From: Thermoproteus tenax Kra 1
GTDB taxonomy: Archaea; Thermoproteota; Thermoprotei; Thermoproteales; Thermoproteaceae
Assembly (NCBI RefSeq): GCF_000253055.1
Contig: NC_016070.1
Span: 90,001 to 122,000 of the forward strand
DNA length: 32,000 nucleotides
Direction: 5' to 3'
Shown here: positions 21,251 to 26,554 of the stretch, piece after piece
Layout of the letters: every line of letters begins with the position of its first letter
Position numbering within the stretch: the first letter of the stretch is position 1
The notes under the pieces: generated by a model
Seen by the model: the letters and a program-made list of their open reading frames with translations, nothing else
What the model was told of the DNA's origin: nothing
Database searches by the model: none
Program-made: the position numbers and the translations under genes

Positions 21251-22305
21251 GCGGCCCCGTGCGTTGAGACGGCTTGTTGGCCCTTGTTGTGTGATCTGCC
21301 CAAGTCCTCTACGGCGAATTTCAAGGCGGCGGCTGCCCTCTCCACATCCGGTACGCGTATGGCCTCGTCCTCTGTGTGGGCAAGCTTGGGATCGCCGGGC
21401 CCGAAAGCCGCTATGTTTTTCGTCAGCTTGATCAACAGGTTGAAGTCGGCCGTTCCATATTTTTTGCTCAACTTGGGCTCAACGCCTATCTTCAACAGCC
21501 CCCTCACAAGCGCCCTGGCCGCGGGGTTCGTCGGGCTCACTTCGGCTGGGTCTACGCACGTCCTCACCACGGCAGGCAACCCCTCGAGCATCTTGAGTAG
21601 TTCCTCGCACGTGTGGCCCGGCGGAATCCTCACGTCCAGCACGGCTGCGCACTCCACTGGGACCTTGTTGGGGGCGTCGCCGCATCTCACCACAGTGGGC
21701 GTCACAGTGAAGTCGTTGTACCTTTCGCCGTGTCTCAACGTCTCCTTAACCTTCAAGTAGGCGTTGTACAGCTCCTCGAACGGATTCCCATATATTGGGC
21801 TGGAGGCGTGGCCGCCCCTTGTGTTAATCCTGAGCTCCACTTTGCCCCCGCCTCTGTAGGCATATGCTACGTGTAGATCAGTGGGCTCGCCCACGTAGAT
21901 GTAGTCGGGCCGCGGGGGCCCGCCCCTCAGTAGCTCCTCTGTGCCCACGCTGTCGTCTTCCTCAGCTGTGACCAGCGTGAGCACCAGAGTGCCGCTGGGA
22001 TTGGCCGTTCTGAAGGCCTCGAGATATGCCACAAGGGGGCCCTTATCGTCGACGGCCCCCCGCCCCCTCACCACGTCGCCCTCATCTCTCACCTCAAGCG
22101 GCCCAGCGACTGTGTCCATATGTGCGTGAAGCCATATGACCGGCTGGCCCCGCCCCCTCACTGCGATCACGTTGCCGGCCGAGTCTATCCATGCATCATC
22201 GGCGTGGTCTCTGGCGATACCCAACAGGAACTTCGCCAGCTCGCCCTCCCCATGCGAGGGGCTATATATGCTGAGCGCGCGCAACAATAGGCCCTTTAGG
22301 TCCAT
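21247..22305 (-). CDS. lysK: [LysW]-lysine/[LysW]-ornithine hydrolase (M20 family, ArgE/LysK)
   Basis: 352 aa. M20 motifs HAHMDTV and GRGAVDDKG. It sits in a lysW/X/Y/Z cluster. A TATA lies about 25 nt upstream. Confidence 0.85.
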
Positions 22306-22370
22306 GGCCTCCTAATAGAAACGGAATATAAAAATTAGGCGGAAGTTCGGCGCACTCCGTGGGAGTTAAG

Positions 22371-22380
22371 TTTTTATATA
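22371..22380 (+). promoter_or_regulatory. TATA-like box (tttttatata) of the lysX-like/lysY/lysZ operon
   Basis: Its centre is about 22 nt upstream of ATG 22398. Confidence 0.55.
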
Positions 22381-22397
22381 GGCTCGGTCGGGCCCCT

Positions 22398-22466
22398 ATG
22401 GAATTTGCGGGGAAAGCGGGGCCAGCGGGGCGAAGATATATATCATCTCCGAGAAGCCCGAGCTAG
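22398..22466 (+). promoter_or_regulatory. 22-codon leader ORF (MEFAGKAGPAGRRYISSPRSPS) with three tandem GCGGGG+codon units; candidate -1 frameshift sensor
   Basis: GCGGGGAAA, GCGGGGCCA and GCGGGGCGA at 22407-22433. The leader frame is +1 relative to the downstream enzyme frame, which is open from 22382 but has no ATG, GTG or TTG before 22478. Confidence 0.55.
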
Positions 22467-23083
22467 GGGAGAGGCTTTTGGCCAAGTTTATATCGGCCCG
22501 GGGTCTCTCAGCCGAGATAGTTGGCCTTGAGGGCGGCATCTCCTCGCCGGAGGGGCTCGCCGTAATTAGGACTAGGAACCAGTACTTGGGAGCGACCTAC
22601 GCCGCTGTATTTAGGCGGGCTGTTAACCAGGCCCACGCCATTTATAATGCCTTGAACAGACTCTACTGGTTGCCCAAGTTCGGCCCGCCCTTCATGGCGT
22701 TCGTCGAAGAGGACGCCGTAGAGAAAGTTGAGTTCGGCCCGCCCTGGCTCTTGGCTACTGCGTGGCGCCTCGGGCTTGACAGCGTAGTGACGAGCGTTGA
22801 GGGGGCCAAGAGCGTGGTGGAGCACCGCTCCTACATGAGGAATCCCCTGGCCAAGGCCAGCGTAGTGATGCCCAAGCCCAGGGAGGTCAAAAGGGTCTTC
22901 GCCGTGGCAGGCATGTCCGACGGAATAGTGGACGAACTCTTGAGGGCCACAGGCTTGAGATACGCCGAGGTGGCCCTGGGCGTGTACGAGGACGGCGAGC
23001 GCGTCATAGACGTCGACCCCATCCCCGAGCTCGACGAGGCCCGCGCAAGGCTCTTGGCAGAATTTCTGGCGTCGGAGACATGA
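22398..23083 (+). CDS. short, divergent RimK/LysX/ArgX-like protein (expression appears to need a -1 shift from ATG 22398)
   Basis: The enzyme frame begins ...AKIYIISEKPELGERLLAKFISARGLSAEIV, which resembles a pre-ATP-grasp N-terminus. The C-terminus ...GLRYAEVALGVYEDGERVIDVDPIPEL resembles the end of an ATP-grasp. It occupies the first slot of the lysY-lysZ operon. It is only about 215 aa and lacks an obvious central ATP-grasp domain. Confidence 0.45.
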
Positions 23084-24135
23084 AGGTCTGTATAATAGGC
23101 GCATCGGGGTTCACGGGGGGCGAGCTCCTGAGAATACTTCTCAGCCACAGCGGAGTGGAGGTCGTCTGTGCCACGTCTAGGAAGTTCAAGGGCGAGTACG
23201 TCTACAGAGTGCACCCAAATCTGAGGGGGTTCACAAACCTCAAGTTTGTGGAGCCGAGCATAGACGTAGCCCTTAAGGCCGACGCCGTGTTCTTGGCGCT
23301 TCCTCACGGCGAGTCTGTCAAGTGGGTCCCCCAGCTCTACGAACACGGCCTGTACGTCGTAGATCTCAGCGCAGACTTCAGACTGAAGGACCCTAACGCC
23401 TACGTAGAGTGGTACAGATGGCCTCAGCCCCATCCCTACCCCGATCTGCTTAAGAGGGCCGTCTACGGGTTGCCCGAGTTGCACAGAGAGGAGCTCCCCG
23501 GCGCTAAGTTGATCGCATCGCCGGGCTGCACAGCGACGGCGTCCATCATGGCTCTGGCGCCTCTCGCAAAGGAGGGCCTCATAGACTCCGGCCCCATCGT
23601 CGTCGACGTCAAGATGGGCTCCTCGGGCGCCGGAGCAGAGGGCTCAGTGTTGGACATGCACAGCCACAGGACGTACGTGATAAGGCCCTACGAGCCCGTG
23701 CACCACAGACATACGGCTGAGGTCGAGCAAGAGCTCACTAGGCTGGCCGGCAGAGAGGTAAAAGTTGCCTACACGCCGCACGCAGTGGATGTTGTCAGAG
23801 GCATTCTCTCGACGGGGCACGTCTTTACTGAGAAGGACGTGGAGGAGCCCTCCCTCTGGAAGGCCTATCGATCTCTATACGGAGACAGCAAGTTCGTGAG
23901 AATAGTGAAGGACAAGATAGGGCTTGCGCGCTACCCGAATATAAAGTACATCTTGGGCACTAATATAGTGGACGTCGGCTTCGAGATAGATAGAAGGATG
24001 AGGAGGATAGTGGCGTTCGCAGCCCTAGACAACCTCGTCAGAGGCGCCGGCGGACAGGCAGTGCAAGCCTTCAATATAGCTGTGGGCTTCCCTGAGGACG
24101 AAGGACTTAGATATATACCGCCCCACCCGATATGA
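23080..24135 (+). CDS. lysY: [LysW]-aminoadipyl/glutamyl-phosphate reductase (ArgC family)
   Basis: [18 protein letters not shown] Rossmann start and the catalytic SPGCTATA motif. ATGA overlap with the upstream gene. Confidence 0.9.
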
Positions 24136-24917
24136 TAATAGTAGTCAAGTTGGGCGGCTCTGTAGTCTGCAAGGACCCCTCAAAGGCCATAGCGGACTTA
24201 GCCAAATACGCCGATGTGGCAGTCGTAGTACATGGGGGCGGCTGTATGGTGAACGAGGTGATGAAGGCGATGGGGCTCCAACCCAAGTTTCTCACGCATC
24301 CCGGCGGAGTAGTCAGCAGATTTACCGACTATGAGACATTGAGGGCCTTCGTGATGACCATGATGTGGATAAACAAGAACATAGTGGCCTCTCTGGCATC
24401 GCTCAGAGTGCCCGCGCTAGGTCTCTCAGGCGCCGACAACATGGTGTTGAGGGCTAAGAGGAAGGAGAAAGTGATAATAGTCGACGAGAGGGGCAGACAG
24501 AGGGTCGTCGATGGAGGCTACAGCGGCAAGATCACTGAGATAGACGTCAAAGCGCTTCTGCCGCCGCCGCTCAAAGTGTTGGCGCCGATCGCCGTATCGG
24601 AGAAGGGCGAGCTCCTGAATATAGATGGAGATCAAGTGGCCTTTGAGATAGCCTCGAGGCTCATGAGCAAACTGGTGATATTGAGCGACGTTGACGGTTT
24701 GATCATAGGGGGAAAAGTCGTGGGCAGACTCACGCCCCAGGAGGCCCTCGAGCTGGCCAAGTCGGACGAGGTCAAGGGAGGCATGAAGAGGAAGTTGATC
24801 GCGGCAGCCGAGGCGGCCAAAAGCGGAGTAGAGACCATAATATACAACGGTCTCGTCGAGTCACCCATAGAGAAGGCCCTCGCCGGAGCGGGTACTCATA
24901 TTATACCTAGTTCCTAA
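24132..24917 (+). CDS. lysZ: [LysW]-aminoadipate/glutamate kinase (ArgB family)
   Basis: IVVKLGGSV and VVVHGGG amino-acid-kinase motifs. ATGA overlap with lysY. Confidence 0.9.
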
Positions 24918-24961
24918 TTAAAGGGAAGAAAAATTTAAATACTATTTAAAAAAGGACTAAT

Positions 24962-25147
24962 ATGGCTAAAGTAAAGCTAACGGCAGTATGTAAAGTATGT
25001 GGTAGCGAGATAGAGCTTCCCGAGGACGTGATGGACGGCGAGATCACTTCGTGTCCCACGTGCGGCACACGTTATATTGTCAGACTGAAGGGCGAGAAAG
25101 TCGAGCTGGAGGAGTTCAAGGGGGACGTGGAGGACTACGGAGAATAA
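24962..25147 (+). CDS. lysW: amino-group carrier protein LysW
   Basis: 61 aa. Zinc ribbon CKVCGS...CPTCG and an acidic C-terminal tail ending EDYGE (LysW-type EDWGE). It has its own TATA about 25 nt upstream. Confidence 0.9.
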   Translation: MAKVKLTAVCKVCGSEIELPEDVMDGEITSCPTCGTRYIVRLKGEKVELEEFKGDVEDYGE

Positions 25148-25165
25148 TCCTCGCTTTTTATCAAC

Positions 25166-25175
25166 ATTTTAATAC
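25166..25175 (+). promoter_or_regulatory. TATA-like box (attttaatac) of argG
   Basis: Its centre is about 23-24 nt upstream of ATG 25194. Confidence 0.55.
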
Positions 25176-25193
25176 GAGCTATTAAGCCCCTCC

Positions 25194-25232
25194 ATGCCCT
25201 CGGGGCGAGAAAGATCAGTAGAATCGCGTTAG
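25194..25232 (+). promoter_or_regulatory. 12-codon leader ORF (MPSGRERSVESR) with UCG GGG CGA; candidate -1 frameshift sensor for arginine
   Basis: ATG 25194 is +1 relative to the argG frame. The G-run 25202-25205 is followed by the Arg codon CGA. 3 of the 12 leader codons are Arg. Confidence 0.55.
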
Positions 25233-26404
25233 CGTATTCGGGCGGTTTGGACACCACTGTTGCGATAAAGTGGCTATCCGAGAAGTATAACGCTGAGGTC
25301 ATAACAGTGACTGTAGATGTGGGCCAGGAGGAGGACTTCCAAGAGGTCGAGTCTAGAGCGTATAAAGCGGGCGCGGCGAAACACTACACTATAGACGCCA
25401 AGAGGGAATTCGCCGAGGAATATATAGCTAGAGCGGTGCTGATGAACGCGATGTACGAGGGGAAATATCCCCTCGGGACAGCCCTCGCGAGGCCTCTGAT
25501 TGTGTCGAAGACCGTCGAGGTAGCAAGGCGCGAGGGGGCAGACGCAATAGCCCATGGGAGCACCAGTAAGGGCAACGACCAAGTGCGTTTCGATGTGACG
25601 GCCAAGGCGTTGGCCCCCGATCTAGAGATCTTGGCGCCAGCCAGAGTGTGGGGCATGGGGAGGGAGCAAGAGATCGACTACGCGAGGAGACACGGCATAC
25701 CTATACCGGAGGCCCACAAGAAGTACAGCATCGACGAAAACTTGTGGACGCGCTCCATTGAGGGAGGGCCTGTCGACGACCAGAGAGCTGAGCCGCCCGA
25801 GGACGCCTTTAAGTGGACTGTACAGCCCGAGAAGGCGCCTGACCAGCCGACATATGTCGAGATAGAGTTCTCCAACGGGCTCCCTAGGTCGATAAACGGA
25901 GAGCGCGTGGACATGCTCCAAGCAGTCAGAGCGTTGAACAACGTGGGAGGTCTGAACGGCGTTGGGCGCATTGACCACATTGAGAGCAGGCTCGTGGGAT
26001 TCAAGAGCCGCGAAGTATACGAGGCGCCGGCGGCGGTGATACTCTACGAGGCCCACCGCGATTTAGAGAAGTTGGTCCTCACGCCGAGGGAGCTACGGTT
26101 TAAACACACTGTGTTGGACCCCCTATGGGCAGATCTAGTGTATCAAGGCCTGTGGGTTGAACCGTTGAGGCAGTCGCTGGAGGCCGCCGCCAGAGAGATG
26201 GAAAGATGGGTGGACGGCTGGGTGAAAGTTAAGCTGTATAGAGGGTCTCTACAGGTGGTCGCCCGCGACTCTAAATACGGAACATACAGCAGAGATATAG
26301 CGGATTACTCCACGGGGTGGTATCCCTCAGACGAGGAAGCGCGCGGCTTCATAGAGATGTGGTCGCTCCACAGCCTCCTGGCATTGAAAAAACGTGGTCA
26401 ATAA
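25194..26404 (+). CDS. argG: argininosuccinate synthase (body in frame from 25202; appears to need a -1 shift from ATG 25194)
   Basis: RIALAYSGGLDTTVAIKWL PP-loop N-terminus, plus the GSTSKGNDQVRF and ENLWTRS(I)EGG motifs. The track start TTG 25247 would delete the AYSGG part of the ATP-binding motif. There is no in-frame ATG, GTG or TTG upstream of it. Confidence 0.9.
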
Positions 26405-26554
26405 ATTCAAAGCTAAATATTATAATTCCAATAATAAATACAGATATAGAATAAAAAGATTTTAATATTATTAAAAATAAAAATAGTTTGCAAATTTAGA
26501 TATTACTCTATATAAGCGATGAAAGAGATATAAAGAGGATGAAAGGGGTCTTCG

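Follow-up and report, generated by a model that had tools for sequence, protein, structure and literature searches.

A candidate arginine-sensing frameshift leader on argG of Thermoproteus tenax and its likely counterparts on other amino acid operons of the Thermoproteaceae

The leaders thrL, ilvL, leuL, hisL, trpL and pheL of bacterial biosynthetic operons contain an open reading frame (ORF) with codons cognate to the pathway product, and the speed of the ribosome on this ORF sets expression. Scarcity of the aminoacyl-tRNA awaited in the A site triggers -1 frameshifting at 'hungry codons' (Gallant and Lindsley) as well as the +1 shift at the CUU_AGG_C site of Ty1, which uses a rare Arg codon; at both, a single P-site tRNA slips without the help of downstream RNA structure. 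Such events have been described as errors or as a fixed-ratio device of viruses and transposons. For trans-frame proteins made specifically upon starvation, 'no examples are known' according to Atkins et al. (2016; PMC5009743), and the frameshifting observed in E. coli pheL is regarded by its authors as incidental (PMC3082878). In Archaea, the fucA1 gene for the alpha-L-fucosidase of Saccharolobus solfataricus is the only reported case of -1 programmed ribosomal frameshifting according to a 2021 review (PMC8211752). Here, we describe the leader of argG, the gene for argininosuccinate synthase, in Thermoproteus tenax Kra 1. It lies in a stretch of 32,000 nucleotides (contig NC_016070.1, positions 90,001 to 122,000), referred to as the window and numbered from its first letter. 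Like the bacterial leaders, it comprises a short ORF with a codon cognate to the pathway product, and like fucA1, it precedes a cellular crenarchaeal gene that appears to require a -1 shift. At this locus, the slip at a hungry codon would be the normal route to a housekeeping enzyme.

The argG frame is open from position 25148, immediately behind the lysW stop codon TAA at 25145-25147; it reads ...HALGARKISRIALAYSGGLDTTVAIKWL... and ends with the stop codon at 26402-26404. The identity of the product as argininosuccinate synthase is indicated by the SGGLDT ATP-binding motif, by full-length similarity and by matches carrying PF00764 and PF20979, and the protein is 88% identical to that of T. 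uzoniensis and 90% identical to that of a Thermoproteaceae metagenome-assembled genome (MAG). As the original prediction had claimed, the first ATG, GTG or TTG of this frame is TTG 25247, which falls within SGGLDT; re-reading of the sequence gave the same result, and a mechanical ORF listing places the gene at 25247..26404 with a length of 385 amino acids.

An ATG codon is found at position 25194, in the +1 frame relative to argG and just downstream of a TATA-like box, as proposed beforehand, and the gap between the two measures 19 nucleotides. Among the genes of the window for which both the TATA-like 8-mer and the start are well defined, the corresponding gap is 17-23 nucleotides (lysW 20, lysK 21, the small subunit of aconitase 20). 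Leaderless mRNAs were discovered in Pyrobaculum aerophilum, and in archaeal leaderless genes the promoter box is typically located 22-24 nucleotides from the start (PMC6028130). Since the TATA spacing matches that of ordinary genes, the out-of-frame ATG 25194 occupies the position expected for a leaderless start; TTG 25247 is not at this distance from the box. The frame opened by ATG 25194 reads ATG CCC TCG GGG CGA GAA AGA TCA GTA GAA TCG CGT TAG. The run of four G at 25202-25205 allows perfect -1 re-pairing while CGA occupies the A site, and a slip at this site would lead to MPSGARKISRIALAYSGG... This passage from ATG 25194 into the ArgG frame, the core of the original prediction, is supported by comparative evidence on the layout, on the interval in which the frame changes and on the sensor codon. 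The original prediction had in addition pointed to Arg codons at and after the slip site. The count of three among 12 codons stands, but the extra ones probably carry no weight as independent evidence, being mostly AGA triplets produced by Lys codons of the -1 frame; moreover, those beyond the slip site are not present in every related leader.

We propose that the argG mRNA is leaderless, beginning at or next to ATG 25194, and that ribosomes would initiate at this codon in a frame of only 12 codons. On the fourth of these, GGG with a further G before it, peptidyl-tRNA-Gly would be placed while CGA occupies the A site. Given ample Arg-tRNA for CGA, the frame would be kept and translation would terminate without synthesis of ArgG. 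Upon scarcity of this tRNA, the ribosome would pause and tRNA-Gly would slip by -1, whereupon GCG is read next and MPSG-ARKISRIALAYSGG... is produced. The closeness of the site to the 5′-end of a leaderless mRNA may aid the slip, and the overlapping genes of an operon, joined by ATGA junctions, would follow by translational coupling. Because the slip, required for ArgG, would depend on the decoding of CGA, the argG site would be an obligatory recoding site and a sensor of the arginine supply at once. That ArgG requires a -1 shift at G_GGG_CGA appears very probable to us, and that the shift acts as a sensor of the cognate aminoacyl-tRNA appears likely. As a whole, a leaderless mRNA on which a -1 slip, elicited by scarcity of the cognate tRNA, switches on argG is with good probability the best explanation. 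We infer from the comparison of sequences both that the shift is ribosomal and goes by -1 and that its efficiency rises as the cognate aminoacyl-tRNA becomes scarce.

A layout in which the start is out of frame, NNG GGG CGA follows, the 0-frame ORF is short and argG occupies the -1 frame is shared by 17 tabulated Thermoproteus and Pyrobaculum loci and by two further Pyrobaculum assemblies. G_GGG is invariant in the 17/17 leaders of these two genera, and CGA is invariant in all argG leaders with G_GGG or with the variants G_GGA and G_GAA. In Thermoproteus, the leader reads ATG CCN TCG GGG CGA with a stop after one to seven more codons (e.g., MPSGRR followed by the stop), and in Pyrobaculum it reads ATG GCG AGT AAA TCG GGG CGA. 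A canonical start is absent upstream of the conserved N-terminal residues of ArgG in both genera, some members having a GTG or TTG at or inside LAYSGG. One missing G would restore the frame, as expected if the homopolymer contained an error of sequencing or assembly or if argG were a pseudogene. The frame layout, however, is kept in more than 25 independent assemblies obtained with different sequencing technologies, and it recurs on five further operons. Finished genomes (P. oguniense, P. arsenaticum, P. islandicum and Pyrobaculum sp. WP30) are represented among these assemblies, as are many independent MAGs. In addition, ArgG is 75-90% identical across genera and free of internal stops. The possibility that the true run is GGGGG, which the original prediction had named as its own refutation, is thus removed, and neither an error nor a pseudogene is a realistic account of the site.

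The layout varies in related genera. Caldivirga has ATG GAT AAC CTG GGA CGA (G_GGA_CGA), Thermocladium CTG GAA CGA CGT TGA (G_GAA_CGA) and a related MAG (L016) CAG GAA CGA; two Vulcanisaeta genomes show GTG AAT TNC CTA AAC CGG ... at leaderless distance from the promoter box (A_AAC_CGG). In these Vulcanisaeta loci (L081 5963-6040; L087 1746-1811) an ATG is absent, the GTG is in the +1 frame and GTA AAA TCG follows downstream. The controls from Sulfolobales, Desulfurococcales, Ignisphaera and Methanodesulfokora (Korarchaeia), like those from bacteria (Dehalococcoidia, an anammox bacterium, cyanobacteria), have an ordinary in-frame start 2-8 codons before LAYSGG, which is TTG in L020 and ATG in every other case. 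In an uncultured Thermoproteaceae MAG (L014, 2440-2540), whose ArgG is 66% identical, argG lacks an ATG as well as a CGA leader; an in-frame GTG lies only about 10 nucleotides past a TATA-like box, and a second GTG opens an ORF in another frame.

The interval of the shift is narrowed down by stops in the two frames. The lysW stop codon closes the -1 frame of Pyrobaculum directly ahead of ATC/AAC/GTC GGG GCG, and the 0 frame ends 2-11 codons past CGA. The shortest Thermoproteus leaders have only CCN TCG GGG CGA AGA between start and stop. The shift is thereby bracketed to about five codons, and the intersection of the limits is TCG GGG CGA. The base before GGG is always G, though it is the synonymous third position of a Ser, Thr, Ala, Val or Leu codon (TCG or ACG in argG leaders); re-pairing in the P site requires a G at this position, and nothing else explains its invariance. 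In Pyrobaculum, the ATG of the argG leader sits inside the last lysW codons (GAC TAT GGC GAG TAA). The lysW sequence covaries with this start: its Tyr codon is TAT, which creates the ATG, in 10/10 genomes in which argG abuts lysW, and TAC in 3/3 genomes in which argG has its own promoter and ATG. The substitution pattern also switches frame at the site: across six operon groups, the wobble position of the -1 frame holds 140/280 variable columns downstream of the site and only 2/16 upstream of it.

These observations bear on the question whether ArgG could be made without any frameshift, by a start in its own frame at a non-canonical codon or by reinitiation after a short regulatory upstream ORF (uORF). 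RefSeq-type models do read ATC, ATA or CTG as Met, a GTG is found two codons ahead of AYSGG in some genomes, and Thermocladium has an in-frame TTG or ATG right past the short ORF. The candidate start codon before GGG, however, varies among relatives (CTC, TTC, ATC, AAC, GTC), and therefore no non-canonical start is conserved, which answers a second objection that the original prediction had raised against itself. The first candidate in T. tenax, TTG 25247, would remove part of the ATP-binding motif. Moreover, the stretch from the slip site to LAYSGG stays open in the -1 frame throughout and has a conserved protein sequence (K-I-x-[RK]-[IV]-x-L), a start in frame would leave the invariant G before GGG without explanation, and a leaderless mRNA has no upstream sequence that could direct internal initiation. 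We therefore hold a frameshift-free start to be improbable and return to the slip at G_GGG.

The arrangement of start, G_GGG, sensor codon and -1 ORF is not confined to argG. It was found in 48 leaders on six operons, those beyond argG and a LysX/ArgX-like operon being detected by a scan anchored on the TATA spacing. In all 48 the ATG lies 17-21 nucleotides (mostly 19) past the TATA box, except for the leaders inside lysW. The slip sites are all within the first 11 codons, and the 0-frame stop follows 1-15 codons beyond the sensor codon. In each of the six operons, the codon after G_GGG is cognate to the product of the pathway: Arg for argG; Lys for homocitrate synthase (HCS); Lys, Pro and Arg for the operon of a LysX/ArgX-like ligase; Val, Leu and Ile for ilvB; Leu for leuA-leuB, where leuA is the paralogue of HCS; and Ile and Thr for thrC-aspartokinase-asd-hom. 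The chance of all sensor codons being cognate amounts to 2e-11 (strict count) to 5e-10 (loose count) with each operon counted once, and when the sensor sets are permuted over the operons, only 1/720 permutations is fully cognate, namely the observed assignment. With regard to codon usage, no Arg codon is rarer than CGA (2.4-7% of Arg codons) in Thermoproteus, Pyrobaculum, Caldivirga and Thermocladium, and none is rarer than CGG in Vulcanisaeta, which uses CGG in its leader. The sensors AAA, CCA and GTT are minor codons. No tRNA genes were found in the window.

A ribosomal shift might also be real and yet constitutive, serving low expression at a fixed efficiency or representing a tolerated ancestral indel without any response to amino acids. 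This would be in keeping with the free occurrence of G_GGG in ordinary genes and with the presence of common codons among the sensors. It would leave unexplained, however, the cognate A-site codons in six operons (about 1e-10), including the distinction between the HCS and leuA paralogues and the Lys/Pro/Arg and Val/Leu/Ile sets, as well as the use of the rarest Arg codon in each lineage. A constitutive shift is therefore an unlikely reading, albeit the least unlikely of the rivals. We consider it reasonably likely that the Thermoproteaceae possess a regulon of 'frameshift attenuators', in which leaderless mRNAs would carry one to three early G_GGG sites, each ahead of a codon for an end product of the operon, and the frame would shift only upon shortage of the matching aminoacyl-tRNA.

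With respect to its mechanism, the argG site shows the pair of overlapping 0 and -1 ORFs, conserved among homologues, that is characteristic of canonical -1 frameshifting. A tandem-slippage heptamer X_XXY_YYZ is not present: in G_GGG_CGA, CGA would need to re-pair with GCG, hence only the P-site tetramer is slippery and the A-site codon cannot re-pair. A conserved downstream structure was not found in 15 argG leaders, for which RNAalifold gave a consensus of -0.41 kcal/mol and no helix adjoining the site, and an Rfam scan of 22000-26500 at E <= 1 returned no match. One-tRNA 'hungry' slippage is independent of stimulators and is triggered by limitation of an aminoacyl-tRNA (PMC8211752); the lack of a downstream structure fits this type of event. 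Re-pairing at G_GGG is perfect in the 48/48 tabulated leaders, at G_GGA it involves wobble, and at G_GAA one G:U pair.

The same protein would result if RNA polymerase copied GGGG as GGGGG and thus produced an in-frame mRNA, and G runs are the common element of the Thermoproteus and Pyrobaculum sites. Transcriptional slippage, however, usually takes a homopolymer run of 7 or more A/T. Four G are far below the known run lengths (PMC5009743), and the Caldivirga G_GGA and Thermocladium G_GAA sites have no homopolymer. In addition, the Pyrobaculum site lies deep in the lysW transcript, far from any promoter, and the cognate sensor codons would have no explanation. Slippage of the polymerase is thus a very remote alternative to slippage of the ribosome.

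Several observations weigh against a cognate-sensing -1 slip at G_GGG. The sensor codons are not uniformly rare, CTC being the commonest Leu codon. Ordinary long ORFs of Thermoproteus and Pyrobaculum show no avoidance of in-frame G_GGG (observed/expected 1.3-1.4, and 1.0 in Sulfolobales/Desulfurococcales), as determined with the ORFs of the window and of L001-L013, L029, L083 and L088-L090, where the subset covering the first 12 codons comprises only 32 genes. The tetramer alone cannot be very slippery if it is tolerated in this way, and extra determinants beyond G_GGG must exist; proximity to the 5′-end of a leaderless mRNA, a very short nascent chain and an empty A site are suggested as such. 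A +2 shift would be compatible with the sequence as well. At Vulcanisaeta argG the site is ambiguous, with A_AAC_CGG, C_CCA and A_AAA_T as candidate slips. In Thermocladium, re-pairing from G_GAA to GGA requires a G:U pair in the middle position, and in-frame starts are on offer, namely a TTG for argG and, for the LysX-like gene, an ATG right after a four-codon uORF; given these alternatives, an obligatory frameshift may not hold in this genus.

A comparison with the systems described so far sets the argG leader apart from each of them. It belongs neither to the canonical class of X_XXY_YYZ plus structure nor to the attenuators, since defining features of both were looked for and not found. 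With the latter it shares the cognate-codon leader ORF, and the codon sets of its sister leaders agree with those of the bacterial leaders (Thr and Ile for thr, Val/Leu/Ile for ilv, Leu for leu). Mutually exclusive terminator and antiterminator structures and a start of the gene's own were, however, not found. The archaeal leaders differ in having no such hairpins, a read-out that would not be transcriptional and one sensor codon per slip site; furthermore, the enzyme lacks a start codon of its own and would be fused to the leader N-terminus by the frameshift. The +1 shift of bacterial prfB likewise involves a short 0-frame ORF ending past the site, a slow event in the A site and a product that relieves the shortage; in its read-out, the proposed device would thus resemble prfB, and in its logic bacterial attenuation. 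With respect to such autoregulatory sensors, the argG leader shows the early 0-frame stop and the shift-dependent product, but not a +1 site with a stop codon or a polyamine signal. Whereas prfB depends on a stop codon, a release factor and a Shine-Dalgarno-like stimulator, the argG leader would use a -1 slip at a sense codon without such a stimulator, at the extreme 5′-end of a leaderless mRNA, on a whole set of operons and in archaea. In fucA1, the slippery heptamer A_AAA_AAT is located in the middle of the gene and has no known link to an amino acid, unlike the argG leader. The fungal arginine attenuator peptide (AAP), encoded by a uORF of arg-2/CPA1, resembles it as a short uORF that renders translation of an arginine enzyme responsive to arginine. 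The AAP, conserved and about 24 residues long, acts as a nascent peptide: it senses free arginine, stalls the ribosome and represses at high arginine without any frameshift. In contrast, only 3-10 residues precede the site in the archaeal leaders, and their sequence is not conserved between operons. A published report of these frameshifts was not found in a full-text literature search that left most subscription-journal papers outside its reach, and the GeneTack survey does not mention these genes.

The features of the argG locus and of the sister leaders are compiled in Table 1.

Table 1. Coordinates of the argG leader, of the neighbouring genes and of the sister leaders (window numbering unless a genome handle is given)
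Feature	Position	Strand	Remarks
TATA-like promoter box of argG, TTTTAATA	25167..25174	+	ends 19 nt before ATG 25194
Leader ORF, 0 frame, ATG..TAG, MPSGRERSVESR followed by stop	25194..25232	+	ATG is the putative leaderless start
Slip site G_GGG	25202..25205	+	tRNA-Gly on GGG 25203-25205 re-pairs perfectly with 25202-25204
Sensor codon CGA (Arg), 0-frame A site	25206..25208	+	rarest Arg codon
argG coding sequence, -1 frame, GGG GCG AGA AAG ... TAA	25202..26404	+	predicted 403 amino acids, MPSG-ARKISRIALAYSGG...
lysW (carrier protein)	24962..25147	+	upstream of argG, same frame, TAA between; NCBIfam NF041070 (carrier_LysW_Arch)
LysX/ArgX-like operon leader	22373..22466	+	TATA 22373-22380, ATG 22398, stop TAG 22464-66
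LysX/ArgX-like slip/sensor units	22409-15, 22418-24, 22427-33	+	GGGGAAA (Lys), GGGGCCA (Pro), GGGGCGA (Arg)
LysX/ArgX homologue, compact ATP-grasp, 218 amino acids	22427..23083	+	-1 frame, first gene of the operon
lysY/argC	23080-24135	+	same operon as the 218-amino-acid gene
lysZ/argB	24132-24917	+	same operon as the 218-amino-acid gene
HCS leader, ATG AGT TCG GGG AAA GCA TAA	TATA 30561-30554, ORF 30534-30514	-	Lys sensor AAA
ilvB (acetolactate synthase, TIGR00118) leader	TATA 31158-65, ATG 31185, stop 31245-47	+	-1-frame enzyme runs past the window end
Pyrobaculum leuA/thrC leader ATGs	L089 7044, L090 3233, L088 4055	-	also L007, L008, L011, L012
Thermocladium loci	L017 3999-3181	-	L086 equivalents
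Thermocladium loci	L017 108-953, 4140-4864	+	L086 equivalents

The leader of the LysX/ArgX-like operon reads ATG GAA TTT GCG GGG AAA GCG GGG CCA GCG GGG CGA ... TAG, its three units being 9 nucleotides apart. At 15 loci, the order of the sensors is Lys-Pro-Arg in Thermoproteus and Pro-Lys-Arg in Pyrobaculum. The LysX/ArgX-like enzymes supply lysine, arginine and, via ornithine cyclodeaminase, proline, and the T. tenax genome paper lists the route to proline from ornithine (PMC3189178). The three units suggest a multivalent control by all three products of the pathway. The third unit was the subject of a further claim, according to which an 8-mer of the argG leader, CGGGGCGA, recurs in the same phase at 22426-22433; it does so, and it is conserved across the genomes compared. 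The other copies in the window (391, 4268 and, on the minus strand, 9198) are ORF-internal and differ in phase or strand. The bare count in the window is not significant (five copies against 1.9 expected; at least five in 3/100 shuffles); the significance of the 8-mer lies in its conservation and context.

The first gene of this operon overlaps lysY/argC, with ATGA junctions at 23080 and 24132. Its protein of 218 amino acids has no match in Pfam or NCBIfam and is annotated as 'hypothetical' everywhere. A profile search against PDB sequences, however, identified ArgX (E = 4e-7). The AlphaFold (AF2) model (predicted local distance difference test, pLDDT, 94) has S. tokodaii ArgX (3vpb) as its top Foldseek match with a template modelling (TM) score of 0.84, and it also superposes on the bifunctional LysX/ArgX of T. 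kodakarensis. By virtue of the profile search and the model, the earlier label 'lysX-like' is right. The family is restricted to Thermoproteus, Pyrobaculum and Thermocladium and is about 60 residues shorter than the characterised LysX/ArgX enzymes. Longer database models of the LysX-like protein (MWGHGSGARGESG..., MGLCGVYGSG...) were rejected, as their starts lie inside or too near the TATA box.

Of the two ATP-grasp LysX/ArgX paralogues of Thermocladium, one begins with ATG GAA CGA and has its ORF in the -1 frame, and the one adjoining lysW has a plain GTG start; both match the PDB structures of ArgX and LysX similarly by sequence score, so that these scores do not separate LysX from ArgX. 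The four-codon uORF of the LysX-like gene of 238 amino acids in this genus, ATG GAA CGA CAA TGA, overlaps the in-frame ATG.

HCS is encoded in the -1 frame down to 29117 on the minus strand of the window. Its leader is kept in three other Thermoproteus genomes (L003, L004, L029) and in P. aerophilum (L089) and P. islandicum (L090). The start GTG 30553 given for HCS by the mechanical ORF listing abuts the TATA box and cannot be real. The ilvB leader contains TCG GGG GTT ... TCG GGG CTC GAG GGG ATC and is kept in two other Thermoproteus genomes (L004 and L029); its third unit, GGGGATCGCCCC, could also form a small hairpin of 4 bp. The leuA-leuB leader of P. aerophilum and P. islandicum reads ATG GCT TCG GGG CTC GTR (CAA) TAA, and the thrC operon (TIGR00260) has NNG GGG ATT TCG GGG ACA at five Pyrobaculum loci. 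As a further member argH was considered and rejected, since the Pyrobaculum gene, located behind a small Zn-ribbon gene, begins with a normal ATG. The Zn-ribbon gene is a conserved ORF of 51-59 amino acids with a four-cysteine zinc ribbon (MGQRTVVCPNCKKPV...CCPRCG...) and its own TATA box, and it overlaps or adjoins the argH start (L083 7243-7398; L088 8240-8419). About 25 other genes of the window start ordinarily, among them those for aIF5B, S6e, a CLC channel, UbiA, HMG-CoA reductase, SDR, SurE, an MFS transporter, CstA and ArsA.

In public databases, the starts of ArgG are scattered: the protein begins with MALAYSGG, MAYSGG, MDTTVAI or MGASK, where ATC is taken as Met, or much further in. 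The public models of ArgG, the LysX-like protein and HCS (P0001-P0029, P0121-P0150, P0151-P0224) have scattered, truncated or over-extended N-termini. The label 'leuA with possible unusual start codon' given to HCS of P. aerophilum is the only trace of the phenomenon in public data. Frameshift leaders can explain this systematic misannotation. Wrong or truncated N-termini of ArgG, HCS, isopropylmalate synthase, acetolactate synthase, threonine synthase and the LysX/ArgX-like ligase across the Thermoproteaceae could then be corrected by a simple rule, and the sensor codon would predict the pathway, telling HCS (Lys) from its paralogue isopropylmalate synthase (Leu).

The elements span only 20-60 nucleotides and need no RNA structure, which makes the maintenance of the frame during early elongation on leaderless mRNA accessible to experiment; they might also provide parts for heat-stable amino acid biosensors. 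If our reading is true, the argG leader and its counterparts would be the first instance of hungry-codon frameshifting serving naturally as a metabolic sensor and would close the gap stated by Atkins et al. (PMC5009743), and the cases of cellular -1 frameshifting in archaea would rise from one to a whole regulon. Acting on translation alone, they would parallel bacterial attenuation and form a class of cis-regulatory elements specific to organisms with leaderless mRNAs, through which the Thermoproteaceae would sense single amino acids by translation despite the lack of 5′-untranslated regions.

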